Shown here: positions 12,915 through 26,536 of the stretch, piece by piece
Layout: every line of letters begins with the position of its first letter
Position numbering within the stretch: position 1 is the stretch's first letter
Source of the DNA: Thermoplasmata archaeon
Lineage (GTDB): Archaea; Thermoplasmatota; Thermoplasmata; JAGHBH01
Length of the DNA stretch: 26,536 nucleotides
Direction: 5' to 3'
NCBI GenBank assembly: GCA_030673205.1
Contig: DAOVJP010000001.1
Coordinates: forward strand, 1-26,536
Notes under the pieces: generated by a model
Told to the model about the DNA's origin: nothing
The model's database searches: none
The model's input: only the letters and a program-made list of their open reading frames with translations
Made by a program: the position numbers and the translations under genes

Positions 12915-14819
12915 CTACCGGTCCTTTCCATAGCCGATGGTTCCCATCGCCATCTCTATCTCCCCTAGGACGGCGGGGTCGTCTATGGTGGATGGGATCG
13001 CATATTCCTCACTATCCGCTATCTTGCGCATGGTGCCCCGCAATATCTTGCCGGAGCGGGTCTTCGGGAGCCGCTCCACCACCACCGCTTTCTTGAAGCA
13101 GGCAATGGCCCCTATTTCGGACCTGACACTTTGCACCACCTCGGAGGCCACCTCTTGGGGGCTCTTGCTGGCACCGGATTTTAGTACGAAGAGTCCTATG
13201 GGTACCTGGCCGCGTAGGTTGTCCGCCACACCCATCACCGCGCATTCTGCCACGTCGGGGTGTTCGGCCACGATCTCTTCCATGCTCCCAGTGGAGAGAC
13301 GATGGCCAGAAACGTTGATCACATCGTCCACGCGTCCCATGACAAATACATATCCATCTTCGTCCACATACCCACCATCCCCTGTGAAATAGTATCCGGG
13401 ATAGGGGTCCATGTATGTCTCTTTGAATCCCTTCTCATTCTGCCAGAGAGTGGAGAAGGTGCCGGGGGGCAGCGGGAGTTTGACAGCTATGATCCCATTC
13501 TCCCCTCTTGGCAGCTCTTCGCCACTGACTGGGTCCAGTATCCTTATGTCATATCCCGGCATGGGCACCGTGGCCGATCCCGGTTTCACCGGGAATTCTT
13601 CCAGGCCGCGGAAGTTCCCCGCTATCGTCCATCCCGTCTCTGTCTGCCACCAGTGGTCTATCACCGGCACCTTCAACAGGTTGGCAGCCCAGTGATAGGT
13701 GTCCGGGTCCAACCTCTCCCCTGCAAGGAAAAGGGTCTCGAAGGACGAGAGATCATATCCCTCCAGGTATTTTCCCTCTGGATCCTCTCTTTTTATGGCC
13801 CGGAAGGCCGTGGGGGCGGTGAACAGCGCCTTCACATTGTGCTGGGATATGACCCGCCAGAAAGCGCCGGGGTCCGGCGTTCCTATGGGCTTCCCTTCGT
13901 ACATCAGTGTTGTGGCACCAAGGAGCAGAGGGGCGTACACAATATAGGAATGGCCCACTACCCACCCAACGTCCGAAGCGGCCCAATAAACATCCCCCGG
14001 GTTAATTCCATAGATGTGTTTCATGGTCCATTTCATGGCAACTGCGTGGCCTCCGTTATCCCGTACCACGCCCTTCGGCAGCCCAGTGGTCCCGGATGTA
14101 TAGAGTATGTAAAGAGGGTCTGTAGCCTTCACCGGGACACAGTCCGCCGGGGAGGCGTTCTCCTCCTGCTCCATCCAATCCATGTCCCGTCCAGGGCGCA
14201 TCTCCGCGCTCACCTGGGGCCTCTGGAGTATCACGCATCTCTCGGGTTTGTGGGATGCGATGTCCACCGCCTCGTCCAGAAGCGGTTTGTAAGAGATAAC
14301 CTTCTGCCCCTCAATGCCACAGGATGCGGATAATATCACTTTGGGTCGAGCGTCATCTATCCTTATGGCCAGTTCCTTAGGGGCGAACCCTCCGAAGACA
14401 ACGGAGTGCACAGCACCCAACCGGGCGCAGGCCAGCATGGACATCAACGCCTCGGGTATCATGGGCATGTAGGATATGACGGTGTCCCCTTTGCCCACGC
14501 CAAGACCCTTGAGGAAACCAGCTATCTTGGACACTCTGTCCTTCAGTTCAGAATATGTGAACTTCGTGATGGTGTCGGTCACCGGGCTGTCGTAGATGAG
14601 GGCTGTCTGCTCTCCCCTTCCCTCTTCCACATGGTAGTCCAGGGCGTTGTAGCAGGTGTTCATCTCGCCGCCCACGAACCACTTGTAGAAAGGCATATTG
14701 GACGTGTCCAACACCTTGTCCCATTTCTTGTACCATGCTATATCCTCGCCTACATTGCCCCAGAATGCCTCCGGGTCTTCCATCGATTCCTTGAATGCCT
14801 TCTCGTATTCGCCGCCCAT
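12915..14819 (-). CDS. prpE: AMP-forming short-chain acyl-CoA synthetase, propionyl-CoA synthetase (PrpE/ACSS3)-like
   Basis: Motifs YTSGTTGLPKG and PKTRSGKILR. FLAGERLD and DHWWQTETGW resemble PrpE/ACSS3 more than Acs (VGEPI, DTWWQTETGG). Substrate not proven. Confidence 0.7.
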   Translation of the reverse strand: MGGEYEKAFKESMEDPEAFWGNVGEDIAWYKKWDKVLDTSNMPFYKWFVGGEMNTCYNALDYHVEEGRGEQTALIYDSPVTDTITKFTYSELKDRVSKIAGFLKGLGVGKGDTVISYMPMIPEALMSMLACARLGAVHSVVFGGFAPKELAIRIDDARPKVILSASCGIEGQKVISYKPLLDEAVDIASHKPERCVILQRPQVSAEMRPGRDMDWMEQEENASPADCVPVKATDPLYILYTSGTTGLPKGVVRDNGGHAVAMKWTMKHIYGINPGDVYWAASDVGWVVGHSYIVYAPLLLGATTLMYEGKPIGTPDPGAFWRVISQHNVKALFTAPTAFRAIKREDPEGKYLEGYDLSSFETLFLAGERLDPDTYHWAANLLKVPVIDHWWQTETGWTIAGNFRGLEEFPVKPGSATVPMPGYDIRILDPVSGEELPRGENGIIAVKLPLPPGTFSTLWQNEKGFKETYMDPYPGYYFTGDGGYVDEDGYVFVMGRVDDVINVSGHRLSTGSMEEIVAEHPDVAECAVMGVADNLRGQVPIGLFVLKSGASKSPQEVASEVVQSVRSEIGAIACFKKAVVVERLPKTRSGKILRGTMRKIADSEEYAIPSTIDDPAVLGEIEMAMGTIGYGKDR

Positions 14820-14843
14820 CGGATCACTTCCATCGAACTGTTC

Positions 14844-14947
14844 TATCTATCTTATTACATCCCTTACGATATCTATCTTATTACATCCCTTACGATATCT
14901 ATCTTATTACATCCCTTACGATATCTATCTTATTACATCCCTTGCGA
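14844..14947. repeat. Tandem repeat, 4 x 26 bp (TATCTATCTTATTACATCCCTTACGA)
   Basis: Copies start at 14844, 14870, 14896 and 14922; the last has one mismatch (14944) and overlaps the 3' end of the acyl-CoA dehydrogenase gene. No spacers. Confidence 0.97.
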
Positions 14948-16064
14948 TCACGAGACGCTGTATCTCCGACGTTCCTTCGTATATCTGGGTCACCTTTGCG
15001 TCTCTGAAATACCGCTCTACCACATAATCCTCGGTGTAACCATAGCCTCCATGTATCTGGATGGCATCTGTGGCGTTCTCCATCGCCGCCTCGGAGGCAA
15101 AGAGCTTCGCCATGGATGCCTCTCTGGTATAGCGTGATCCCGTATCCTTCAGGTATGCGGCCTTGTGAACAAGCAAACGAGCGGCGTCCACCTTCACAGC
15201 CATGTCCGCCAATTTCCACTGGATAGCCTGGAACTTGGCTATGGGTCGTCCGAACTGCTCTCGCTCCTTTGCATATTTCACACTCTCCTCCAACGCTCCC
15301 CTGGCTATGCCCACGCATTGTGCGGCTATGCCTATCCTTCCTCCGTCCAGTGCAGAGAGCGCTACCTTGAGCCCTGCGCCCTCGCCCCCTAACAGATTCT
15401 CTTGTGGAACATAACAATCCTCGAAGATGAGCTCGGATATCACGTCCGCATGCATCCCCATCTTCTCCTCTATCTTTCCAATGGTGAAGCCAGGGGTGTT
15501 TTTCTCCACGATGAAGGTGCTCAGCCCCCTGGAGCCCTTCGACCTGTCCGTCATGGCGGTGATTATGAGACATCCCGCATCTGGCCCGTTGGATATGAAA
15601 CATTTTGCGCCGTTCAGGACGTATCCCTCCCCTTTCCTCTCCGCCTTTGTCTGTATGGCCATGGCGTCGGAGCCCGCCTCTGGCTCGGTGATGGCAAAGC
15701 CCCCTACCATCTCACCTTTTGCGAGCGGCGGCACGTATTTCCTTTTCTGCTCCTCTGACCCGTATCGAAGTATAGGGAGGGTGCCCACGGAGGTGTGCAC
15801 TGCCACTATGACGGCGAGAGCGGCCCATGTCCTAGCGATCTCTTCCAATGCTAGGATGTAGGATATCATGTCCGTTCCGCCCCCGGAATATTCTTTTGGC
15901 ACGGGCATTCCAAGCAATCCCATCTTTGCCATCTTGGCCACATATTCCATAGGAAATTCCCGGGTCGCGTCCGCCTCTGAAGCGAAGGGGGCGACCTCTT
16001 CTTCCATGAATACGCGCACCGATTCCTGGATCATCCGTTGTTCCGGGGTTAGATCGAAGTTCAT
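14925..16064 (-). CDS. acd: Short-chain acyl-CoA dehydrogenase (butyryl-CoA dehydrogenase-like)
   Basis: Motifs FAITEPEAGSD, LNGAKCFISNG, EEKMG, GRIGIAAQ, R.QFGRPI, QIHGGYGY and IYEGTSEIQ. Confidence 0.93.
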   Translation of the reverse strand: MNFDLTPEQRMIQESVRVFMEEEVAPFASEADATREFPMEYVAKMAKMGLLGMPVPKEYSGGGTDMISYILALEEIARTWAALAVIVAVHTSVGTLPILRYGSEEQKRKYVPPLAKGEMVGGFAITEPEAGSDAMAIQTKAERKGEGYVLNGAKCFISNGPDAGCLIITAMTDRSKGSRGLSTFIVEKNTPGFTIGKIEEKMGMHADVISELIFEDCYVPQENLLGGEGAGLKVALSALDGGRIGIAAQCVGIARGALEESVKYAKEREQFGRPIAKFQAIQWKLADMAVKVDAARLLVHKAAYLKDTGSRYTREASMAKLFASEAAMENATDAIQIHGGYGYTEDYVVERYFRDAKVTQIYEGTSEIQRLVIARDVIR

Positions 16065-16165
16065 ATGCTCACCTCTGGAATAGAATTCACCTATGCTCTC
16101 CTAAGCATGGGTCGTTCGCTTGCCTCTGAGATGGCCTCATTTACCTCTGAGATATAGGCGCCCAC

Positions 16166-16996
16166 TCATTCACCTCTGAAATCCGGCTCTCTCTTCTCCA
16201 CAAAAGCCGCCATGCCCTCTTTCTGGTCCTTGGTGGCAAAGAGACCGGAGAAGAGCTTCGCCTCATGCTCCAACCCGTTGGCCAGAGTCATGTCCAGGCC
16301 CTCGTCCATCGCCTTTTTGGCGTTCTTCATCGCAACCGGACCCTTTGAAGCTATCTTGGTAGCCATGTCCATGGCGGCCTTGAGAACGGGTTCGTTGTCC
16401 TGCACCGGCTTTCCCTTTTCGTTCCTTATGCGCTCCCCGTTCTCATCCTTCTTGTAGCCCTCCACCACCTGCTGGGTCAAGCCTATGCTCTGGGCGGCTT
16501 TGGCGTTGATGATATCTCCGGTGTATATGAGTTCCTTGGCCTTGCCAGAGCCCACGAGGCGTGTTAGTCGCTGGGTTCCTCCAAAACCTGGGATGACGCC
16601 AAGGCTTACCTCTGGTTGGCCGAACTTAGCCGCCTCCGAGGCTATTCTGATATCACATGCCAGTGCCATCTCCGTTCCTCCTCCCAGGGCAAAGCCGTTG
16701 ACAGCCGCGATAACGGGGATAGGAAGCTGTTCCAGCTTTCTGAGCACACCATGGCCCAAATGGGCAAAGGCCAACGCTCCTTCGGGGTCCAGGTCCATCA
16801 TCTCTTTTATGTCGGCACCGGCCACGAACGCTCTCCCGGCGCCGGTGAGGACCACAGTCCTTATGGCGGGGTCCGAGCCTATGTCGTCGAGCGCCTTGTC
16901 TAGCTCGTTCAACAGCGCGGTGCACAGCACGTTCATGGGGGGGTTGTTGATTGTTATTACGGCGACCCCGTCCTTCTTCTCCATATCTATCATCAT
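16166..16996 (-). CDS. crt: Enoyl-CoA hydratase (crotonase) 1
   Basis: Motifs FVAGADIKE, GGGTE and GQPEV..G.IPG.GGTQRL (both catalytic Glu). Start placed at ATG 16996 after GGAAGGTGAG. Confidence 0.9.
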   Translation of the reverse strand: MMIDMEKKDGVAVITINNPPMNVLCTALLNELDKALDDIGSDPAIRTVVLTGAGRAFVAGADIKEMMDLDPEGALAFAHLGHGVLRKLEQLPIPVIAAVNGFALGGGTEMALACDIRIASEAAKFGQPEVSLGVIPGFGGTQRLTRLVGSGKAKELIYTGDIINAKAAQSIGLTQQVVEGYKKDENGERIRNEKGKPVQDNEPVLKAAMDMATKIASKGPVAMKNAKKAMDEGLDMTLANGLEHEAKLFSGLFATKDQKEGMAAFVEKREPDFRGE

Positions 16997-17012
16997 CTCA
17001 CCTTCCTGCCGT

Positions 17013-17867
17013 TCATCGAGTATATTCAAAGAATCCACGCCCGGTCTTCCTACCCAGGTAGCCCGCGTTCACCATCTTCTTCAATAGAGGGCAGGGCCGA
17101 TATTTGGAATCGGCGAAGCCGCCATACAAGACCTCCATGATGTACAAGCACGTGTCCAGGCCTATGAGGTCTGCCAGTTCCAGAGGGCCCATGGGATGGT
17201 TCATTCCCAGCTTCATCACCCCGTCTATGTCCTCTTTGCTAGCCACACCTTCCATGAGGCAGAACACCGCCTCGTTGATCATGGGCATGAGTATCCTGTT
17301 GGATATGAAGCCGGGGTAGTCGTGGGCCTCTATCGGGATCTTCCCCACCTGCTTTGCCAGCGCCACCACGCTCTCCGCTGTCTCATCGGACGTTCCCAGG
17401 CCCCTTATGACCTCTATCAGTTTCATGATGGGGACGGGGTTGAAGAAGTGCATGCCTATGAACTTGTCTGGCCGGGATGTGGCGGCGGCCATCTCGGTGA
17501 TGGGTATGGTGGACGTGTTGGAGGCGAATATGACATCCGGCCCGCATATCTCGTCCAGTTCCTTGAACACCTTCTTCTTCAATTCGATATTCTCCACCAC
17601 CGCCTCTATGATTATCTCACAGTCTTTCAGGTCTTCCACTTTGGTGGTTCCCTTTATCAGTGCCAGCGCCTGCTTCTTCTCCTCTTCGGTCATCTTTTCT
17701 CTGGCCACGCTCTTGGACAGGAACTTGTCTATCTTCTGCAGTCCGTTGTCCACATAGTTCTGCTCTATGTCCCGCATGATCACTTCGTGACCACTCTTGG
17801 CGGCTACCATGGCTATTCCGTGCCCCATAGTGCCTGCGCCTATGATGCCTATCTTCTTGATCTCCAT
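17013..17867 (-). CDS. hbd: (S)-3-hydroxybutyryl-CoA dehydrogenase, NAD-dependent
   Basis: Motifs GAGTMG, IIEAVVE, ASNTS, GMHFFNP, PGFISNR and HPMGPLELADLIGLD. Confidence 0.93.
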   Translation of the reverse strand: MEIKKIGIIGAGTMGHGIAMVAAKSGHEVIMRDIEQNYVDNGLQKIDKFLSKSVAREKMTEEEKKQALALIKGTTKVEDLKDCEIIIEAVVENIELKKKVFKELDEICGPDVIFASNTSTIPITEMAAATSRPDKFIGMHFFNPVPIMKLIEVIRGLGTSDETAESVVALAKQVGKIPIEAHDYPGFISNRILMPMINEAVFCLMEGVASKEDIDGVMKLGMNHPMGPLELADLIGLDTCLYIMEVLYGGFADSKYRPCPLLKKMVNAGYLGRKTGRGFFEYTR

Positions 17868-17919
17868 TCATCTCATCTCCCATATCTCGCTATTCTGCTA
17901 TCTGTAATTTATATGCAAT

Positions 17920-19098
17920 TTACATCTCCACTATCATAGCCACGGCGTTCCCGCCTCCGAGACACAACGTGGCCAATCCTCTGTGGTCGCCGCGGTCCTT
18001 CATGGCATACATGAGGGTGGTGAGCACCCGGGCGCCTGAGGCGCCTATGGGATGGCCGAGGGCCACTGCTCCGCCGTGGACGTTGAACTTCTCATCGGGT
18101 ATTCCAAACTCCTTCTGGACGGCCACGGATGCGGATGAGAATGCCTCGTTGTGCTCCCAGAGATCTATATCCTCCGTGGTCAAACCGGTCTTTTCCAACA
18201 ACTCCTTTATGGCAGGCACGGGGGCCTCCATGACATCCTCAGGAACGACGCCGGAAGTGTGATATCCAACTATCTTGGCCATGGGCGTTATGCCCTTCTC
18301 CTCCGCCTTCTTCCGGCTCATCACGACCACCGCCGACGCCCCGTCCGATATCTGGGAGGCGTTGCCCGGGGTGATGATCCCATCCTTCTTGAAGGCCGGC
18401 CTGAGACGTGCAAGCCTCTCTATGGTGGTGTCCGGTCTCGGTCCCTCGTCAGTATCGAATACGATGGGGTCGGCCTTTCTCTGGGGCACTTCTACGGGGA
18501 CTATCTCGGCTTTGAACTTGCCTGTGTCTATGGCGGCGCAGGCCTTCTTGTGGCTGTTGAACGAGAATTGGTCCAGCTCTTCTCTGGAGAGGTTGTAGTG
18601 CTCGGCGATGCGTTCGCCGGTGATGCCCATGTGGAAGTTGTTGTATATCTCCCACAACCCATCGTTCACCATGGAATCCACCAATTTCCCGTCACCCAGA
18701 CGGTAGCCGACTCTGGCATCTTGTAACAGATAAGGGCAGCGGGTCATGTTCTCCATGCCACCTGCCACAATTATGTCATGTTCTTCGGTCCTTATGGAAT
18801 TGGCGGCGAACATTATGGTCTTGAGCCCTGACCCACAGACCTTGTTTATGGTCGTCGCTCCGACGTTGTACGGTATCTTGGCGCCGATGGCCGCCTGTCT
18901 TGCCGGGTTCTGTCCCAATCCCGCCTGGACCACCAGACCCATGAGCACCTCTTCCACATCTTCCACGGAGATGTTCGCTCTCTTGATCGCTTCCTGGATC
19001 ACTATGGTGCCTAGCTTTGGCGCCGGAGTGCCTTTCAGAGAGCCGTTGAACTTTCCCATGGCCGTTCTTACCGCTGAAACTATGACTGCCTCTTCCAT
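17920..19098 (-). CDS. Acetyl-CoA acetyltransferase (thiolase II, bacterial PhaA/AtoB-like)
   Basis: Motifs NKVCGSG, GGMENM, HNEAF, GHPIGASG and CLGGG. Start placed at ATG 19098 (MEEAVIVSAVRT). Confidence 0.93.
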   Translation of the reverse strand: MEEAVIVSAVRTAMGKFNGSLKGTPAPKLGTIVIQEAIKRANISVEDVEEVLMGLVVQAGLGQNPARQAAIGAKIPYNVGATTINKVCGSGLKTIMFAANSIRTEEHDIIVAGGMENMTRCPYLLQDARVGYRLGDGKLVDSMVNDGLWEIYNNFHMGITGERIAEHYNLSREELDQFSFNSHKKACAAIDTGKFKAEIVPVEVPQRKADPIVFDTDEGPRPDTTIERLARLRPAFKKDGIITPGNASQISDGASAVVVMSRKKAEEKGITPMAKIVGYHTSGVVPEDVMEAPVPAIKELLEKTGLTTEDIDLWEHNEAFSSASVAVQKEFGIPDEKFNVHGGAVALGHPIGASGARVLTTLMYAMKDRGDHRGLATLCLGGGNAVAMIVEM

Positions 19099-19222
19099 CT
19101 GAATCTCTCCATCGATGTCGTGCCTGGTATTCACAATTGCTTGCGACAAAAGGTTACCATGCCTCTTCGCCTCTCCTGATCTGAGAGGCTGTCCTACACA
19201 TGTCAGGGCTATATGCGCTCGG

Positions 19223-19236
19223 GTTTAAGTATTTTG
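19223..19236 (-). promoter_or_regulatory. Putative BRE-TATA promoter for thiolase-hbd-crt-acd
   Basis: Minus strand reads CAAAATACTTAAAC inside a 234-bp intergenic gap. Confidence 0.5.
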
Positions 19237-19332
19237 TACCCCCCCCCTCCGCCCATGTTCATTCCTCTGAGCTCGCTCTCCCATGTTATAGCGGATCGCC
19301 TAAGCTATACCCTAAAACGACTCCAAGAGACC

Positions 19333-20121
19333 TCATCTATCCTCGAACTTGGGATGCCTTCCCTCAAGGAACGCTCTCATCCCCTCTTTCTGGTCGTAGG
19401 TGTCGAAGAGCTCTGTCCACCTCTCCACCTCGAACGCTAACCCGTCCTCTATGAAGCTCTCGTGGAGCTGGTTGATCGCTCTCTTCGCGTTGAAGAGGGC
19501 GTGCTTTCCTTTGCTGGCCATAGTCTCCGCCAGGGCCATGACCACATCCTCCAGGTTCTCCCTCGGCACCACGTGATTGACCAGACCGATCTCCATTGCC
19601 TCGTGGGCGTCTATTCGTTTGCCGGTGTATATCATCTCTTTGGCTTTCGCGATCCCCACTATCCTAGAGAGGCGCTGGGTCCCCCCCCATCCAGGAATGA
19701 CGCCGATGTCTATCTCCGGCTGGGAGAACACAGAGCCCTCCGCTGCTATTCGGATGTCGCAGGCGCATGCAAATTCCACCCCGCCTCCCAACGTGTATCC
19801 GTGGATGCCGATGATGACCGGCTGGGGCATGGTCTCCAGCTTCCGGGCTATCCGATGGCCCATCTGGGCGAACCTCTTTCCCCCCTCGCGGTCCTTCGCA
19901 CTCATCTGTTTGATGTCGGCACCAGCGGTGAAGGCCTTCTTGCACGCGCTTAGGAGGACGAGCACTTTGACGTTCTCGTTCCGGCCTATCTCGTCGAGGA
20001 TGCTAGCGAACTCGTCCAGGGTCTCTTCGTTGAACACGTTCAGGAACTTGGGCCTGTTCAGTGTTATGGTGCCTATCCCATTTTTGATATCGACCTTCAG
20101 ATTCGTGGGCTCTTTTTCCAT
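19333..20121 (-). CDS. crt: Enoyl-CoA hydratase (crotonase) 2
   Basis: Motifs FTAGADIKQ, GGGVE and SQPEI..G.IPG.GGTQRL. Confidence 0.9.
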   Translation of the reverse strand: MEKEPTNLKVDIKNGIGTITLNRPKFLNVFNEETLDEFASILDEIGRNENVKVLVLLSACKKAFTAGADIKQMSAKDREGGKRFAQMGHRIARKLETMPQPVIIGIHGYTLGGGVEFACACDIRIAAEGSVFSQPEIDIGVIPGWGGTQRLSRIVGIAKAKEMIYTGKRIDAHEAMEIGLVNHVVPRENLEDVVMALAETMASKGKHALFNAKRAINQLHESFIEDGLAFEVERWTELFDTYDQKEGMRAFLEGRHPKFEDR

Positions 20122-20157: not shown

Positions 20158-21309
20158 TCATTTTCCACTTTTCTTCGTGGAAGACTTTTTGGAGACGCCT
20201 TTCTGTTTCGGCGGCTTTGCCTCTTCTCCCTTCACGCTTGACCTCTCTCTCAGCCATTCGGACACTTGGGGCCACATCTTGGCATGGGCGGCCGAACTCA
20301 CTGAGAGACCTATATGGCCAGTCTTGAAGAGCATCAGCTTTTTGTCCTTGCTAGGTATCAGGTCGGTGAAGGACATGCTCGACTCGGGGGGTACCAGATT
20401 GTCGTATTGTGCGACGATGTTCAATACTGGCATCGTCAGTTTGTTCAGATACACCCTCTTTCCGTCGAGTTCAAGCTGCGACTTCACTAGGAGGTTCTGT
20501 TGATAGCACTTCTTCATGAACTCCCTGTACGCCTCTCCTGCCAGAGGTATCCCATCATTTATCCACTTCTCCATCCTGAAGAACATCCTCACGAACTCCT
20601 CGTTGTCCGCCTTGCCTGTGAACATCACGTACTTGGAGTAGAGGTTGTTGACCGGGTTGAGAAGGAGGAAGCCGAAGTTCAGGAACTCCCCTGGCACGTT
20701 GCCCACCGTGTCCACCAGCTTATCGGTGTCGAAGTATTCTGGCCCGGCCCAGAGGCGAAGGAGACCCTGGTCCGCCTCGAAGTCCAGTGGCGTCACCATC
20801 AATACTAGGTTCCTCACCTTTTCAGGGTGGAGTGCCGTGAACATGGTGGAGAGGGTGCCGCCCATGCAATACCCCAATATGGAGATGGAGTCCAGGTGGT
20901 GCCGGGTTCTGATGAAGTCTACCACATCGTTGATGTACCAGTTTACGTAGTCGTCAAGGGTGAAGTATTTGTCCCCCTCAGTGGGCGTGCCCCAGTCTAT
21001 CAGATAGACATCAAATCCCTCGTTCAACAGCCTCCGGATGACGCTCCTGTCCGGTTGTAGGTCAAGGATGTAAGGCTTGTTCACGAGGGCGTAGACGATC
21101 AGGAGCGGTACCTTGTGCTGCTCCTCGGTGATCGGGAGGTAGTGAAGCAGTCTCATCTTCCCGTCCTCGAATACCACATTCGAGGGGGTGGTCCCCACCT
21201 CCACGTCCGGGGGGTTCAACAAGAGTTTGAGCGCCTGTTCTCTCTTGCGCCACATCTCTTGCGTCTCCTCGAACTTGACCTTGAGATCCTCTCTATCGTC
21301 GGATACCAT
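20158..21309 (-). CDS. phaC: Class III PHA synthase catalytic subunit
   Basis: 383 aa. Motifs PLLIVYALVNKPYILDLQP..S, GFDVYLIDWG, lipase-box GYCMGG, FFRMEKWINDG, catalytic Asp (YDNLVP) and His (GHIG). Confidence 0.95.
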   Translation of the reverse strand: MVSDDREDLKVKFEETQEMWRKREQALKLLLNPPDVEVGTTPSNVVFEDGKMRLLHYLPITEEQHKVPLLIVYALVNKPYILDLQPDRSVIRRLLNEGFDVYLIDWGTPTEGDKYFTLDDYVNWYINDVVDFIRTRHHLDSISILGYCMGGTLSTMFTALHPEKVRNLVLMVTPLDFEADQGLLRLWAGPEYFDTDKLVDTVGNVPGEFLNFGFLLLNPVNNLYSKYVMFTGKADNEEFVRMFFRMEKWINDGIPLAGEAYREFMKKCYQQNLLVKSQLELDGKRVYLNKLTMPVLNIVAQYDNLVPPESSMSFTDLIPSKDKKLMLFKTGHIGLSVSSAAHAKMWPQVSEWLRERSSVKGEEAKPPKQKGVSKKSSTKKSGK

Positions 21310-21343: not shown

Positions 21344-22168
21344 TCAGCCCTTCACCTCTCTATTGTCCTTGGAGGAGTTGACGGTCCGTGCCACCTCGCT
21401 GATCTTCCGGTCCAGCTCGTGGAGCTTCCGATATATCTCGTCTATGTGGTCCTTCGTGGGAAGGCCTACCGCGCTCAGGTATTGCTTCATGGACTGTTGG
21501 CTCTCCTGGAGCATCTCCAGGTTCCGAGTAAGGACATCACCGTTCATCTCCGCGAAGCCTGGACGCCCTATCGCGTCCATGATCATCTTCGAGCATTCCT
21601 CGGTCCAGAGGTCGTTCAGCTCCTTCCACTTGACGGCATAATCCTTATCTCCCCCATCGGAGGCGAGGATGCTCTGTGATCTCTCCCACATCTCCCGCCA
21701 GAACTGGCTCAGATCTTCCAGATGGGCCGCATCCTTCACGGAGAACGCGTCCATCCACAGTTCGTAGAGGTCCTTCTGTCTCTTTATCCTCTCGTTCATC
21801 AGCCCTGTCAACTGCTCTCCCATCTTCGTGGAGTCCTCCGACCAGAGTTGGTAGAGCTCTTTGTAGGGGATGTCCTTCTTGCCAAAGAGGTCGACGAACT
21901 TCTGCCCCATCCTGTCCGAGTATTCGCCCCAGAGCTTCTGCATCTCTTCGAACCCGGGTTTGTCCTCGGTTGACACTTCGCCGAGCTTCTCACTCATCAA
22001 CTGGGCGTATTCTGACCATAGGCCGTACAGATCTTCGTATCTCTTTGCGCCTTCTTTTGTGAGCTCTGGAATCCTGTCGGTGAGGTCTTTCGATAGATCG
22101 AGCCAAGCCTCATAGAACTTCTCGTAGTCCTTGTCGTTCTGCTCCTTTTTGCCTTCGTCTTTTGCCAT
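21344..22168 (-). CDS. phaE: PhaE-like class III PHA synthase subunit with 29-aa internal repeats
   Basis: Immediately upstream of phaC. C-terminal GLPTKDHIDEIYRKLHELDRKI resembles the conserved PhaE C-terminal motif; all-helical composition. Confidence 0.8.
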   Translation of the reverse strand: MAKDEGKKEQNDKDYEKFYEAWLDLSKDLTDRIPELTKEGAKRYEDLYGLWSEYAQLMSEKLGEVSTEDKPGFEEMQKLWGEYSDRMGQKFVDLFGKKDIPYKELYQLWSEDSTKMGEQLTGLMNERIKRQKDLYELWMDAFSVKDAAHLEDLSQFWREMWERSQSILASDGGDKDYAVKWKELNDLWTEECSKMIMDAIGRPGFAEMNGDVLTRNLEMLQESQQSMKQYLSAVGLPTKDHIDEIYRKLHELDRKISEVARTVNSSKDNREVKG

Positions 22169-22207: not shown

Positions 22208-23158
22208 TTAGTCTTTTTGCTCGTCCAACTTCTTTTCCAGGTCCGCGACCTTCTTATTCAGGTCTGCGACCTCATCTCGTACCTTCTGAGGGCCAAAGAA
22301 GGGGAACATCGTCCAGCCCTTCTGGAAACCCGCCATTCTCTCGAAGTACATCTTATAGAGGCCCTCGTAGTCGGTGCCGGAGGCCTGCATGGTGTTGGTC
22401 AAACGTGCACCCATCTTCTCGGTCTCTTTGAGCCAGGTGCCATAGACGTTCTCGTAATCGTTCTTTCGCCCGTCGAAGAACTCCATCATGCTGTCTCCGA
22501 ACCTGTCGGACATGGTGTTCCACATGGCATTTATCTCGTTGGTATGGACCTCGTTCTCCGTGACCATGGTGTCCGTGATCTTGGTCATCTTGTCGGTAAG
22601 GTCATTCCACAGCTCGACCACCTTCTCGTTCTCGTTGGGGAGGGATACGAGCCTCGCGAACTGTGTGTTTATCGTGTTCGAGAAGTCGAACCAAGAGGTG
22701 TAGATGTCCTGCAAGGTGTTCTTTTCCGTCCCCTCCATCATCGGGGTGTTCTTCATGCTGTTCATCACGAAGTCCTGGTACATATCGGTCAGTGCTCTGA
22801 TGTTGGTCGTGTTCCTCTCAACGATGTTCTCCAGGCGAACCCCTATCTTGTTGGAGTAGTTCTTCCACACGTTGAACATCTCCGTGTATCCCTTTTCCTC
22901 CGCCTCCTCGTTCATGGGGGGTTTCAGCCTCATCGTCATGCTCTTGGAGAAGTCTTTCCAACCGTTGTACATCTTCTCGTATTCGTTCCTGCTATCTTTC
23001 AGGACGCCTGTGATCTGGCTCTCCATCCGCTTCGAATAGTCGATCCACGGGTCGAAGACGGTGGGGGTGTTTGGCATCTCTGGTCTCTCCGGCCTCTTTG
23101 CCCCGGGGGTTTTGATCGGGTCCTGCGTTCTCCTTTTTGGTGTTCCTGTCTTTTTCAT
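22208..23158 (-). CDS. 29-aa repeat helical protein: second PhaE-like subunit or novel granule-associated (phasin-like) protein
   Basis: SD AGGAGAGG. Basic Pro-rich N-tail, nine W/Y-anchored repeats and a C-terminal coiled coil. Lies between phaB and phaE. Confidence 0.65.
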   Translation of the reverse strand: MKKTGTPKRRTQDPIKTPGAKRPERPEMPNTPTVFDPWIDYSKRMESQITGVLKDSRNEYEKMYNGWKDFSKSMTMRLKPPMNEEAEEKGYTEMFNVWKNYSNKIGVRLENIVERNTTNIRALTDMYQDFVMNSMKNTPMMEGTEKNTLQDIYTSWFDFSNTINTQFARLVSLPNENEKVVELWNDLTDKMTKITDTMVTENEVHTNEINAMWNTMSDRFGDSMMEFFDGRKNDYENVYGTWLKETEKMGARLTNTMQASGTDYEGLYKMYFERMAGFQKGWTMFPFFGPQKVRDEVADLNKKVADLEKKLDEQKD

Positions 23159-23208: not shown

Positions 23209-24027
23209 TCAGATGTACATGCCTCCGTTTATGTTCAATACGTGGCCGGTGATGTAGGATGCGTCATCGGATGTTAGGAACGCCACCGCCTTCCCTATCT
23301 CCTCCGGCATCCCGAACCGTCTCAAGGGTATCTGGGCCAGTATCTTCTCCTTGACCTTGTCAGGTATCCCGCTGACCATATCGGTCTCTATGAAACCGGG
23401 GGCGATGGCATTGACCGTGATCTTGTTCCTCGCCAGCTCCTTCGCTAGGGATTTCGTCATACCTATGACACCCGCCTTGGAGGCCGCATAGTTCGCCTGC
23501 CCTATGTTTCCCATCTGGCCCACGATGGAGGTGATGTTTATGATTCTCCCGTGCTCGGATTCCATCAGATGGTCAAGGAACGTGCTCGTGCAATTGAAGA
23601 CGCCGTTCAGGTTGACCTGGATGACCTTGTTCCAGCTCTCTTGATCCATCTTCTTGAACAGCATGTCCACGTTGATGCCAGCGTTGTTGACCAGTATGTC
23701 TATCTTTCCGAAGTATTTCTCGACGACCGCGCGCATCTCCTCCACTTCACCAATGTGGCTTATATCCGCACGGTATGTCCAGGTGTCCGCGCCGATGGCC
23801 TCGGCGCCCATGGCCACCATCTCTGCCTTCTCCTCGCTCGAGCGGTAGTTCACCGCGACATCGGCCCCCGCCTCCGCCAGTGCTTCCACGATCGCCCTCC
23901 CAATACCCCTGGACGCCCCAGTCACCAGTGCTTTCCTGCCAGTCAGCCTCTGGCTGGAGGCCCGGGTACCCGGGTTCACAGCCGGGTCCCGTGCTTTTAT
24001 ACCCTTCACAGACTCCTCTATGCTCAT
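23209..24027 (-). CDS. phaB: Acetoacetyl-CoA reductase (SDR, probably NADPH-dependent)
   Basis: Motifs TGASRGIG, NYRSS, NNAGI, S..GQ.GN.GQANYAASKAG, PGFIET and NINGG. First gene of the phaE/phaC unit. Confidence 0.85.
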   Translation of the reverse strand: MSIEESVKGIKARDPAVNPGTRASSQRLTGRKALVTGASRGIGRAIVEALAEAGADVAVNYRSSEEKAEMVAMGAEAIGADTWTYRADISHIGEVEEMRAVVEKYFGKIDILVNNAGINVDMLFKKMDQESWNKVIQVNLNGVFNCTSTFLDHLMESEHGRIINITSIVGQMGNIGQANYAASKAGVIGMTKSLAKELARNKITVNAIAPGFIETDMVSGIPDKVKEKILAQIPLRRFGMPEEIGKAVAFLTSDDASYITGHVLNINGGMYI

Positions 24028-24122
24028 GTTCTCTCTCCCCTACGTTTGACTCGCTCACGGCGATCACGTTCATATGTCGTTGTTCGATCATCGTGGACGA
24101 TAGTTACAGACAGAAATCCCTC

Positions 24123-24139
24123 TAATATATGCTTTCTTC
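24123..24139 (-). promoter_or_regulatory. Putative BRE-TATA promoter of the pha operon
   Basis: Minus strand reads GAAGAAAGC-ATATATTA, ~95 nt upstream of the phaB ATG, in an AT-rich divergent gap. Confidence 0.5.
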
Positions 24140-24200
24140 AAACTATGTTAAAGAATGAGTGTGTATACTGTACATTTTACTTACAAATCACCTACAATTT

Positions 24201-24217
24201 GAGAAACTCTTATATAT
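24201..24217 (+). promoter_or_regulatory. Putative BRE-TATA promoter of the wHTH-PAS regulator
   Basis: GAGAAACTC-TTATATAT 60 nt upstream of ATG 24277; SD GGAGG at 24261-24265. Confidence 0.65.
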
Positions 24218-24276
24218 CTATACGGTCATATATCAACCAGACTGTCCTTTACCCCGGGCAGGAGGCCTACATCAAC

Positions 24277-26082
24277 ATGCCCACATTAAAACAGACACTC
24301 TCATATCTGATATTGGGGAAGAGAGGGGGGCAGAACAGGATACAGATCATCGAACTGCTCAAAGAGCGACCATACAACATCAACCAGATGGCCGAAGTGC
24401 TGGGCCTGAACTATCGCACCATCAAACACCATGTCGATGTACTTCTGGAACATGAGTTGATCAACACATCCAAGACCGGAGGGTACGGAGAGGTATATTT
24501 CCTGAGCCCCGAGATGGAAGAGAACATGGATCTCTTCGAGGGAATAGTGAAGAAACTCGCGAACATCACATCCTCCCCCAGATTCTTTCAGAGCGTGGTT
24601 GAACAGACGCACGACGCCGTCATAATCATAGACACCGATGGTGAAACCCTATTCTGGAACAAGAGCGCAGAGAAGATATACGGCTACAAGGAGAAAGAGG
24701 TATTGGGCGACGCCGTTCCCATCTTTTCATATTCCCGTTTCCTGGAAAAGATGATAACCCAGGCCGTAGAGGGAAGGAAGATAACGGCTTTCGAGACCAA
24801 GGCCCGTCACAAGTCCAGAGAGCTCATCGACGTGAGCGTCACGATAGATGCCATCAAAGATGAGAACAAGCAGATGATAGGATTCTCCATCCTATCCAGG
24901 GACATCACCGAGCGAAAGCGGGCGGAATGGGCGCTCCAGATGTCGGAAAAGCGTTTCAAGGAGGTCTTCGAGAACACACCGATCGGCGTGTACCAGACCA
25001 CCCCTGATGGGCAGATACTCATGGCGAACCCTGCATTGGTAGATATGCTGGGCTTCTCCTCGTTCGAGGAGATCGCCCAACGGGATCTGGAGGGAGAAGG
25101 ATTCCATCCAGACTACCAGCGTGCCGAGTTCAAACGCCGTATCGAGAAGGAGGGCGAGATCAAAGGACATGAGACCATCTGGATGAGAAAGGACGGCTCC
25201 AGCCTGTTCATCCGCGAGAACGCGAGGGTCTTCCGGAACGAGAACGGGAACACGTTGTACTACGAGGGCACGGTGGAGGACATCACCGAGCACAAAAAGG
25301 CCGAGGAGGCCCTGCGAGAGAGCGAGGAACGGTTCAAACAGGTGGCCGAGAGTGCCGGGGAGTGGATATGGGAGTTGGATGCCAGTGGCCTCTACACCTA
25401 TGCGAGCCCCATGGTCGAGGAGATGCTCGGCTACAAACCGGAAGAGCTCGTTGGAAAGAAGCATTTCTACGACTTCTTTGCTCTGGATGTACAGGAAGAG
25501 TTAAAGGAAGGGGCCTTCAAGGTCTTTGAGAAGAAGAAACCGTTCAGGAACTTCGTCAATCCCAATCTGCACAAGAACGGCAAGAGGGTCATATTGGAAA
25601 CGAGCGGCTTGCCGATATTGGACAAGGACGGGGGGCTCTTAGGATATCGGGGGGCCGATACCAACATCACCGAGCGCAAGCGGGCGGAAGAGGCATTGCT
25701 GGAAGCAAAGGAAATGTACGAAACGCTCGTGAGGACCTCCCCAGATGCCATAACGGTAACCGATCTGGATGGGAACATCACGTATATATCAGAGCGGGCG
25801 CTCGAACTCCACGGCTTCGACGAATCAGAGGAAATGATCGGAAGAGGAGCCTTTGAGTTCATAGCTCCCGAAGACCATAAGAAGGCGATGGAAAATCTCC
25901 AGCGGACGTTGGAAGAGGGGGTTATAAGAGGTGTGAAATACACTATGCTGAGGAAGGATGGGACCCGTTTCATCGGTGAACTAGACGCCTCATTGATAAG
26001 GGACGCACAAGGAGAACCAAAAGCATTTATCGCCATCACGAGGGACATCACCGGGCGCAAACGGGCGAAAAAAGACCTCTAG
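24277..26082 (+). CDS. One-component transcription regulator: ArsR-like wHTH plus four PAS/PAC domains
   Basis: 601 aa. N-terminus RGGQNRIQIIELL.ERPYNINQMAEVLGLNYRTIKHHVDVL. Four PAS repeats, each ending in a DITER/EH/GR(K) motif; no kinase domain. Confidence 0.88.
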   Translation: MPTLKQTLSYLILGKRGGQNRIQIIELLKERPYNINQMAEVLGLNYRTIKHHVDVLLEHELINTSKTGGYGEVYFLSPEMEENMDLFEGIVKKLANITSSPRFFQSVVEQTHDAVIIIDTDGETLFWNKSAEKIYGYKEKEVLGDAVPIFSYSRFLEKMITQAVEGRKITAFETKARHKSRELIDVSVTIDAIKDENKQMIGFSILSRDITERKRAEWALQMSEKRFKEVFENTPIGVYQTTPDGQILMANPALVDMLGFSSFEEIAQRDLEGEGFHPDYQRAEFKRRIEKEGEIKGHETIWMRKDGSSLFIRENARVFRNENGNTLYYEGTVEDITEHKKAEEALRESEERFKQVAESAGEWIWELDASGLYTYASPMVEEMLGYKPEELVGKKHFYDFFALDVQEELKEGAFKVFEKKKPFRNFVNPNLHKNGKRVILETSGLPILDKDGGLLGYRGADTNITERKRAEEALLEAKEMYETLVRTSPDAITVTDLDGNITYISERALELHGFDESEEMIGRGAFEFIAPEDHKKAMENLQRTLEEGVIRGVKYTMLRKDGTRFIGELDASLIRDAQGEPKAFIAITRDITGRKRAKKDL

Positions 26083-26168: not shown

Positions 26169-26536
26169 CTACCCCATGTGGTTCGGCTCGTATGGGTTGA
26201 AGGCCGGATCCCCGTGTAAGTTGAACTCCTCCATGGTGTCGTCGTTGGTGCCCCCGTTGTCGCTTCCCTCTGTCAGAATATAGGCGTTCTTGGCGAGCAA
26301 GAGCGCCTCCCCTATGGTGGCGTTCCCTGCGGTCTCTGCGGTCAGCCCTCCCTCCTTGTCGTATATGTAGCCCGTGAGGTGACCGTACATCAATAGGGCT
26401 AGATAGGAGCCGAAGGCCTCTCCGCTGTCGTCGATTATGGACAGGCCTCCCCAGGACAATCGGGAGGCGCCTATGTAACTGTTGAATCCAGAATGCATAT
26501 ATGCCTGGCTCAGCGCATTGTAGGGTTGTATGCCAT
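26169..26536 (-). CDS. C-terminal end of a peptidase C25 (gingipain)-like protein, 5'-partial
   Basis: Frame is open to the window edge. YIGASRLSW, TIGEALLLAKNAY and FNLHGDPA resemble the C-terminal part of the C25 catalytic domain; the catalytic His/Cys lie outside the window. Confidence 0.65.
   Translation of the reverse strand, partial: GIQPYNALSQAYMHSGFNSYIGASRLSWGGLSIIDDSGEAFGSYLALLMYGHLTGYIYDKEGGLTAETAGNATIGEALLLAKNAYILTEGSDNGGTNDDTMEEFNLHGDPAFNPYEPNHMG

Follow-up and report, generated by a model that had tools for sequence, protein, structure and literature searches.

A PAS-containing one-component transcription factor as a candidate regulator of polyhydroxyalkanoate genes in an uncultured Thermoplasmata archaeon

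Comparison with described regulators

Regulation of polyhydroxyalkanoate (PHA) genes is understood mainly through granule-binding PhaR-type repressors of bacteria and haloarchaea. Regulators of these types are thought to sense the granule surface and are expected to control the genes for PHA synthase and granule proteins as well as themselves. Here, a concrete candidate for the control of carbon and reductant storage in uncultured non-halophilic archaea is described in an uncultured cold-seep archaeon of the Thermoplasmata: a gene in a stretch of 26,536 nucleotides (nt), herein referred to as the window, that encodes a winged helix-turn-helix (wHTH) domain followed by four PAS domains and is divergent from a cluster of pha genes. 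The candidate comprises this protein, two elements of 18 bp each (a palindrome and a direct repeat) in a 249-bp spacer, and orthologous loci. The regulator probably controls the pha genes, a link that is made likely by the conserved divergent synteny and by the rarity and family-wide conservation of the module found in the spacer. In that case, archaeal PHA storage in anoxic sediments would be switched by an intracellular signal sensed by PAS domains, a logic of PHA control that has no description yet. No publication that describes PHA genes in Thermoplasmata, or a regulator of PHA genes with PAS domains, was found by full-text searching. The window, the sequence of which is present in cold-seep metagenome DNA, is an entire contig of a 2.04-Mb metagenome-assembled genome (G000) that is 72% complete. 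Three sequencing runs, all of DNA and all from a cold-seep metagenome study, were listed in a run search, one of them being the probable source, and no RNA run was among them.

Both the bacterial PhaR/AniA regulators and the haloarchaeal AbrB-type ones, encoded with phaP beside phaEC, resemble the analyzed regulator in that the regulatory gene adjoins genes for PHA synthase and granule proteins. The phaRP genes beside phaEC have been described in Haloferax and Archaeoglobaceae (preprint 10.1101/2025.05.06.652502). In contrast to these regulators, the analyzed protein has no PhaR or AbrB domain, and only HTH_5 and PAS domains were found in it by Pfam and NCBIfam. Since no domain is shared, it is not a PhaR of the bacterial or haloarchaeal (AbrB) kind. 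A weak, sub-threshold match to the NCBIfam model phaR_Bmeg belongs to the PhaE-like neighbour and not to the regulator. Moreover, the four PAS sensor domains imply a soluble signal, unlike PhaR.

A CXC metal site in helix alpha-3 is the defining trait of the ArsR/SmtB metalloregulator subfamily. The analyzed regulator is similar to the ArsR/SmtB and Phr/PH1932 regulators in its match to HTH_5 (PF01022, residues 19-63; 27.6 bits, gathering cut-off 22), in its modelled helix-turn-helix with a beta-wing, and in the solved sequences nearest to its HTH, which in a phmmer search of the PDB were Pyrococcus PH1932 (1uly, E 1.2e-4) and Phr (2p4w, E 2.5e-3). It differs from them in that the NCBIfam ArsR/SmtB metalloregulator model NF033788 reached only 32.4 bits on the N-terminal 100 residues, under the cut-off of 55, and in that sensing is left to the fused PAS domains. 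No cysteine was found in residues 1-100, and the classic ArsR CXC metal site is therefore absent.

The PAS-containing one-component factors, such as PpsR/CrtJ of purple bacteria, the NifL-type redox PAS proteins, and Bat of Halobacterium, share with the analyzed regulator the direct fusion of PAS sensor domains to a DNA-binding domain and the lack of a kinase. Here, however, the HTH is N-terminal and of the ArsR type. The NCBIfam model for PpsR gave a weak match of 51 bits, far under its cut-off of 275. Judged by its domains, the analyzed protein is a PAS-containing one-component transcription factor and neither a strict ArsR metalloregulator nor a sensor kinase. The gene and its domains, all on the forward strand, are as follows.

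24261..24265, + strand: GGAGG ribosome-binding site, 11 nt before the regulator ATG
24277..26082, + strand: wHTH-4xPAS regulator gene, a stop-free open reading frame of 601 amino acids (aa); coordinates include the stop codon
24331..24465, + strand: ArsR-type winged-helix DNA-binding core, residues 19-63 (Pfam HTH_5, PDB phmmer, AlphaFold2 model)
24562..24942, + strand: PAS1, residues 96-222, conserved jointly with the HTH in the family (also supported by fold neighbours)
24943..25317, + strand: PAS2, residues 223-347 (Pfam, self-alignment)
25318..25698, + strand: PAS3, residues 348-474, PAS_3 type (Pfam, self-alignment)
25699..26079, + strand: PAS4, residues 475-601, missing in pha-linked relatives of 465-480 aa (Pfam, self-alignment)

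Among the PAS families of Pfam, PF00989 matched four stretches of the protein (187.5 bits, E 7e-56), as did the NCBIfam model TIGR00229 'PAS S-box' (313.5 bits). Mutual alignment of segments 96-222, 223-347, 348-474, and 475-601 also resolved four PAS units, with a (D/N)IT-x-(R/H)K-(R/K)-A junction at the end of each, and the C-terminus lies about 10 residues beyond PAS4. No HisKA, HATPase, GGDEF, EAL, cyclase, or other output domain was found by Pfam or NCBIfam. The architecture proposed in a sequence-only reading of this DNA, a wHTH with four PAS domains and no output domain, was thus borne out.

Residues 1-230 were modelled by AlphaFold2 from 24 relatives, with a mean predicted local distance difference test (pLDDT) score of 81 and a predicted template-modelling (TM) score of 0.69. 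In the model, the HTH is formed by four helices and a beta-hairpin wing within residues 4-76 (H4-14, H18-30, H35-42, H46-58, E62-66, E72-76), with pLDDT of 93-94 across residues 21-60. The wing is followed by two helices, a low-confidence stretch (pLDDT about 50, residues about 101-110), and the PAS fold, in which helices flank a five-stranded sheet. The PAS1 model superposes on FixL, NifL, DosP, and LOV with a Foldseek probability of 1.0, a target-normalised TM-score of 0.7-0.79, and an identity of 14-26%. No full-length two-domain match to the model was found among the 50 best PDB matches listed (TMq <=0.48).

The N-termini of homologues, with an ATG at the exactly aligned position in at least 10 of them, and the GGAGG placed 11 nt upstream make the ATG at 24277 the likely true start of the regulator. 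The version in the protein database has 645 aa and starts at the ATG at 24145; this gene call is probably over-extended and starts too early. Its 44 extra codons (24145-24276) would overlie the putative operators and a TATA box described below. The reading frame is open far upstream, and the mechanically delimited open reading frame begins at 23551.

Divergent synteny with pha genes

The pha cluster lies on the reverse strand and is separated from the regulator gene by a short spacer.

24028..24276, no strand: divergent intergenic spacer of 249 bp from phaB to the regulator gene
23209..24027, - strand: phaB-type acetoacetyl-CoA/3-oxoacyl reductase of the short-chain dehydrogenase/reductase (SDR) type, first gene of the divergent cluster
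22208..23158, - strand: rep316, a 316-aa protein without family match, orthologues of which are found within other pha clusters
21344..22168, - strand: PhaE-like subunit (PF09712, 41.1 bits, cut-off 25.7)
20158..21309, - strand: class III PHA synthase PhaC (TIGR01836, 449.9 bits, cut-off 365.3)
19333..20121, - strand: enoyl-CoA hydratase (ech), a conserved partner in pha clusters

The gaps from phaB through ech are only 34-50 nt, which suggests that phaB-rep-phaE-phaC-ech form a single operon. On the same strand, ech is followed by genes for a thiolase, Hbd, a second hydratase, an acyl-CoA dehydrogenase (acd), and an acyl-CoA synthetase.

The regulator and PhaC genes were found on the same contig, divergent and within about 2-5 kb of each other, in four genomes: G000, to which the window belongs, and G009, G159, and G062, which span three families besides that of the window. 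Synteny with pha genes had been set beforehand as the test on which the proposed link could fail; in total, relatives with a divergent upstream pha cluster were found in five further places, or four once near-copies were merged. The nearest full-length relatives are all divergent from pha clusters. These are P0004 (from G159), P0110 (from G062), P0003, and the proteins of G009:C7, L104, and L161. In P0003, located on an ENA contig, PhaB is directly divergent, as in the window, and in P0110 a small AsnC-type gene lies between the regulator and the pha cluster. Of the 80 loci that were returned by an HTH-PAS1 alignment scan of JGI metagenome contigs, two on unbinned contigs are pha-linked: L161, and L104, which is nearly a copy of G009.

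The order of genes in these clusters varies. L161 has the phaB-rep-phaE-phaC-ech order of the window, despite an HTH that is only 54% identical. The phaB gene is the first one in the window, L052, and L161, and phaE/phaC are the first in G009 and G159. PhaC proteins of the pha-linked genomes are just 44-50% identical to that of the window. The pairing of regulator and pha genes was thus retained despite differing gene order and this low PhaC identity, as functional coupling predicts.

Some loci fell outside this comparison. Adjacency cannot be judged in G042 and G088, which are of the same genus as G009, because the contig with the pha genes stops inside or just past the cluster, and P0071 and P0009 start at contig ends, with their upstream context outside the contigs. 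P0047 was rejected as pha-linked, having a TPR gene upstream instead. L097, the regulator of which is identical in its N-terminal part to P0090, has a PhaB gene 1.3 kb upstream and was treated as ambiguous because two hsp20 genes intervene. In this locus (L097:475-1493), these hsp20 (alpha-crystallin) genes lie between the PhaB gene and a 770-aa wHTH-PAS-GAF regulator, and the module described below faces the first of them. PHA and heat/oxidative-stress genes may share this type of regulator in some lineages.

The distribution of the family was analyzed in 401 genomes of the class, using the first 100 residues of the regulator as the query (E<=1e-12). HTH matches were found in 161 genomes, many of them as PAS fusions. 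Matches of 52-72% identity lie in open frames of 330-950 aa; all of those extracted or looked up bear PAS domains, and some also have GAF domains. Matches of about 36-55% identity are found in frames of about 100-140 aa, which agrees with the statement in the sequence-only reading that this HTH is known as a small stand-alone protein. The fusion, however, is not unusual: given the wide occurrence of PAS fusions and the many paralogs, it is ordinary for the class. The HTH-PAS architecture is common and represents a large multi-paralog family across the class, the members of which are named in databases merely as 'PAS domain S-box protein'. The HTH, the linker, and PAS1 form a single conserved block, with 45-67% identity over residues 1-225 across the family. 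The number of PAS domains varies among the pha-linked relatives: about three in the proteins of 465-480 aa, four in the window, and more in the 719-aa P0003. By these alignments, HTH and PAS1 are the only fixed core of the pha-linked regulators.

PhaC was found in 45 of the 401 genomes. A 2025 preprint reported no PhaC among the moderately thermophilic Thermoplasmata genomes that it screened, and PHA genes in the class thus seem under-reported. In-frame stops flagged in the PhaC matches of one genus proved to be an artefact of matches that overran gene ends; the PhaC reading frame was intact in the two loci checked.

Most members of the family are located away from pha genes, two paralogs (P0106 and P0076) being beside oxidative-stress genes, and 58 other family loci for which sufficient upstream sequence was available had no pha gene within about 5 kb. 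About 90% of the PhaC-bearing genomes in the sample have no such regulator as a neighbour.

A quick maximum-likelihood tree of HTH and PAS1 was built from 130 rows. Adjacency to pha genes changes 4 times on this tree, compared with a mean of 7.8 for shuffled labels, and none of 500 shuffles gave as low a number. The window groups with the G009/G159 clade with a value of 90 in the Shimodaira-Hasegawa-like approximate likelihood-ratio test (SH-aLRT). When a single clade was enforced for the pha-linked rows together with those nearest relatives whose context is unknown, the p-value of the approximately unbiased test was 0.645, and the tree was 10 log-likelihood units better than that of the quick free search. 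A single orthologous pha-linked branch is therefore possible on these sequences.

A composite module in the spacer

Two putative operators and two TATA-like boxes were found in the 249-bp spacer.

24123..24130, - strand: TATA-like box TAATATAT facing phaB, a predicted promoter element that corresponds in the alignment to the TATATAT box of the module
24136..24153, no strand: imperfect palindrome CTTCAAACTATGTTAAAG (CTTCAA-ACTATG-TTAAAG; consensus TTTCAA-N6-TTGAAA), putative operator beside the phaB-side TATA box
24182..24199, + strand: direct repeat TACAAATCACCTACAATT (TACAAAT-CACC-TACAATT, 11-bp period), putative operator immediately before the TATA box of the regulator
24209..24218, + strand: TATA-like box CTTATATATC, predicted promoter of the regulator, aligned with CTTAAATAT of paralog promoters

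The 11-bp-phased direct repeat T(A/G)CAAAT-N4-T(A/G)CAA(A/T) is common to the spacers of the window, L052, L097, and L161. In these four spacers, the palindrome TTTCAA-N6-TTGAAA lies about 45 nt to the left of the direct repeat, with the TATATAT box before the palindrome. The phaB-facing side, with its TATA box and palindrome, is about 100 nt from the ATG of phaB, and the distance is equal in L052. The consensus of 13 module copies is TATATAT-N5-TTTTCAAAATCTnTTGAAAAA ... ATACAAATTATTTACAATT ... GAnAAAnnCTTAAATAT. The window matches each of these blocks, and its module aligns end to end with the modules of paralogs.

In the family, the strict direct repeat was found in 17 of 102 non-redundant 300-nt regions upstream of the genes, always on the strand of the gene, with an expectation from dinucleotide shuffling of 0.065 and a maximum of 2 in 200 shuffles. 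The pattern was defined from four sequences, and 13 of the 17 matching regions are independent of those. Over 1.45 Mb of family loci, 48 matches were found, many of them just upstream of regulator genes or at nearby promoters. Genome-wide, the direct repeat is rare and its sites cluster near regulator genes. It is found 15 times in G028, including 6 within 5 kb of one regulator gene, and 16 times in G058, including 5 within 6 kb of its regulator gene. One of the three repeats in G062 is located upstream of the pha-linked regulator. The sole repeat of G009 (L037:8389-8501; G009:C7:98455-98471) lies within the pha cluster, upstream of a gene orthologous to rep316 of the window (39.7% identity).

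In the G000 assembly, two direct repeats were found, one in the spacer of the window and one at C474:1779. The latter is on a contig of 2.6 kb, inside a long open reading frame, and was taken as a chance match. The relaxed palindrome YTTCAAN6TTRAAR has exactly one match in this assembly, that in the spacer. Thus, neither the palindrome nor the direct repeat has another intergenic match in the 2.04 Mb of this 72%-complete assembly. The strict palindrome was found 10 times in G028 and 20 times in G058, versus 5 and 8 for the control, and is not clearly enriched because the right half varies in many module copies; good conservation across copies is confined to the left half, TTTCAAAATCT.

In the annotated loci, the side of the module with the palindrome and TATA box faces the starts of genes for cupins (twice), DUF1059 (once), and Hsp20 (twice, one assuming an internal start), and in the window it faces phaB. 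Counted by module, a gene start lies on this side in four of five with annotated neighbours. A full copy of the module at L095:8330-8404 lies where a NosD-like gene and a DsrE gene converge, between their stop codons, and neither side has an annotated gene start; this copy may adjoin an unannotated small gene or RNA.

Proposed regulation and alternative explanations

On balance, the evidence favours a cytoplasmic one-component transcription factor that controls the phaB-rep-phaE-phaC-ech operon and its own gene through the spacer module. The protein consists of an ArsR/Phr-like winged helix without the metal-site cysteines that is connected through a helical linker to PAS1 and the other three PAS domains, and would bind the composite module of the spacer, probably as a dimer or higher oligomer. 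The 6-N6-6 palindrome beside the phaB-side TATA box would mediate control of the operon, and the 11-bp-phased direct repeat beside the TATA box of the regulator would mediate autoregulation. A signal received by the PAS array would change DNA binding, the candidates being redox state, oxygen, or a metabolite. We infer that the regulator itself binds the module, and the sign of regulation is likewise a matter of inference. What stands of the regulatory idea in the sequence-only reading is the synteny and the family-specific cis-module in 24028-24276; the architecture, in contrast, is not special.

Several observations weigh against control of the pha genes by this protein. Adjacency was found in just 4 of the 45 PhaC-bearing genomes, with two more undecidable at contig ends, and a wHTH-PAS neighbour is missing from about 20 other pha clusters for which 7-10 kb of context was available. 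The closest PhaC relatives, in G058 and G048, are without adjacency, and the pha locus of G058 has no direct-repeat site. The strict direct repeat is also absent from the own spacer of the G009/G159 subclade. A single pha clade was not recovered by the quick free-search tree, and the synteny may have been inherited from one ancestor, so that its cases are not independent. Finally, the module is primarily the own promoter of the regulator in the family, and its presence here could therefore reflect autoregulation only.

One alternative is a general stress/redox regulator like the paralogs, which would regulate itself and perhaps distant genes and whose proximity to pha genes would have no regulatory meaning. 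We regard this explanation as improbable, even though paralogs P0106 and P0076 are found among genes for rubrerythrin, ferritin, peroxiredoxin, Hsp20, and other oxidative-stress proteins, two hsp20 genes separate the regulator from phaB in L097, the module has the same orientation in the window as at the paralogs' own promoters, and the majority of pha clusters are without this neighbour. Although the clusters are rearranged, adjacency to pha genes recurs in relatives from three other families and on two unbinned contigs, and the single direct repeat of G009 sits inside its pha cluster. No distant regulon is apparent in G000, as the spacer holds the only intergenic match of each motif there.

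Two further explanations appear very unlikely. The regulator could control fatty-acid/acyl-CoA catabolism (ech, thiolase, hbd, acd, and acyl-CoA synthetase, 12915-20121) through an acyl ligand bound by PAS, with PHA co-regulated only within the long cluster. PAS domains are able to bind fatty acids, and ten co-oriented genes follow phaB in the window; however, a gap of 183 nt separates ech from the thiolase gene, and the conserved partners at the other pha-linked loci are phaB, phaC, phaE/rep, and one ech, with the thiolase, hbd, acd, and synthetase genes not found there. As for binding of the module by another factor, either a stand-alone HTH homologue or a general promoter factor, with the wHTH-PAS protein acting elsewhere or through protein-protein contacts, the module accompanies the fused genes across families, and in the 72%-complete G000 assembly this HTH was found at E<=1e-3 in a single gene. 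In favour of such a factor, the class includes stand-alone homologues whose recognition helix is similar, one of them 11 kb from the pha cluster of G039.

With control of the pha operon by the regulator as the preferred explanation, the nature of the signal can be considered separately. For the suggestion in the sequence-only reading that the protein could integrate small-molecule or redox signals, the hints are the structural neighbours of PAS1 and the location of paralogs beside oxidative-stress genes. LOV domains react via a cysteine in an NCRF-type motif, and FixL and DosP bind haem via a histidine. The structural neighbours of PAS1 are sensors of oxygen, redox, and light (with haem, FAD, or FMN) at 14-26% identity, and such PAS types dominate the PDB. 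No invariant Cys or His was found in PAS1 across 24 relatives, and neither a haem-ligating His nor a LOV Cys is conserved. Sequence and fold did not yield a cofactor assignment: the best-matching folds belong to haem, FAD, and FMN sensors, but with low identity and without conservation of a ligand residue. That the regulator senses redox or oxygen is rather doubtful. A broader proposal is put forward tentatively: a class-wide wHTH-PAS family with a composite bidirectional operator, in which one branch would be dedicated to PHA, with a signal most plausibly of the redox/oxygen kind, as in the stress-linked paralogs, and not the granule-sensing logic of PhaR.

P0106 (L094:1-19758, a Logan contig) and P0076 (L095:8300-16300, CP070672.1) are wHTH-PAS-GAF paralogs located amid oxidative-stress genes. 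Their neighbours encode rubrerythrins, ferritin, superoxide reductase/desulfoferrodoxin, a flavodiiron protein, rubredoxin, peroxiredoxin, thioredoxin, cupin, DsrE, Hsp20, and DJ-1, and several nearby promoters carry the module of palindrome and direct repeat. These surroundings look like a local stress regulon. For this paralog clade only, and with no homology claimed, an analogy can be drawn with the redox-sensitive MsvR of methanogens, which is divergent from rubrerythrin/oxygen-detoxification genes. MsvR is encoded divergently from an oxidative-stress operon and has a V4R domain rather than PAS. Local stress regulons of related archaea thus also seem to be marked by this family and its module, and one binding study could therefore assign an operator to a large unnamed group of archaeal factors.

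Two other features of the analyzed contigs were noted. Downstream of the regulator, a convergent open reading frame (26169-26534, - strand) runs off the contig end; it matches only the C-terminal part of peptidase family C25 (E 7e-6) and is unrelated to the regulator. In L051:4894-9391 and L050:7762-9763, pha clusters were found with three to five consecutive family-less genes (160-380 aa) upstream of phaC, which have sub-threshold matches only, to PhaE, phasin, and apolipophorin-III. These genes probably encode granule-associated proteins related to the pair of 316-aa and PhaE-like proteins of the window.

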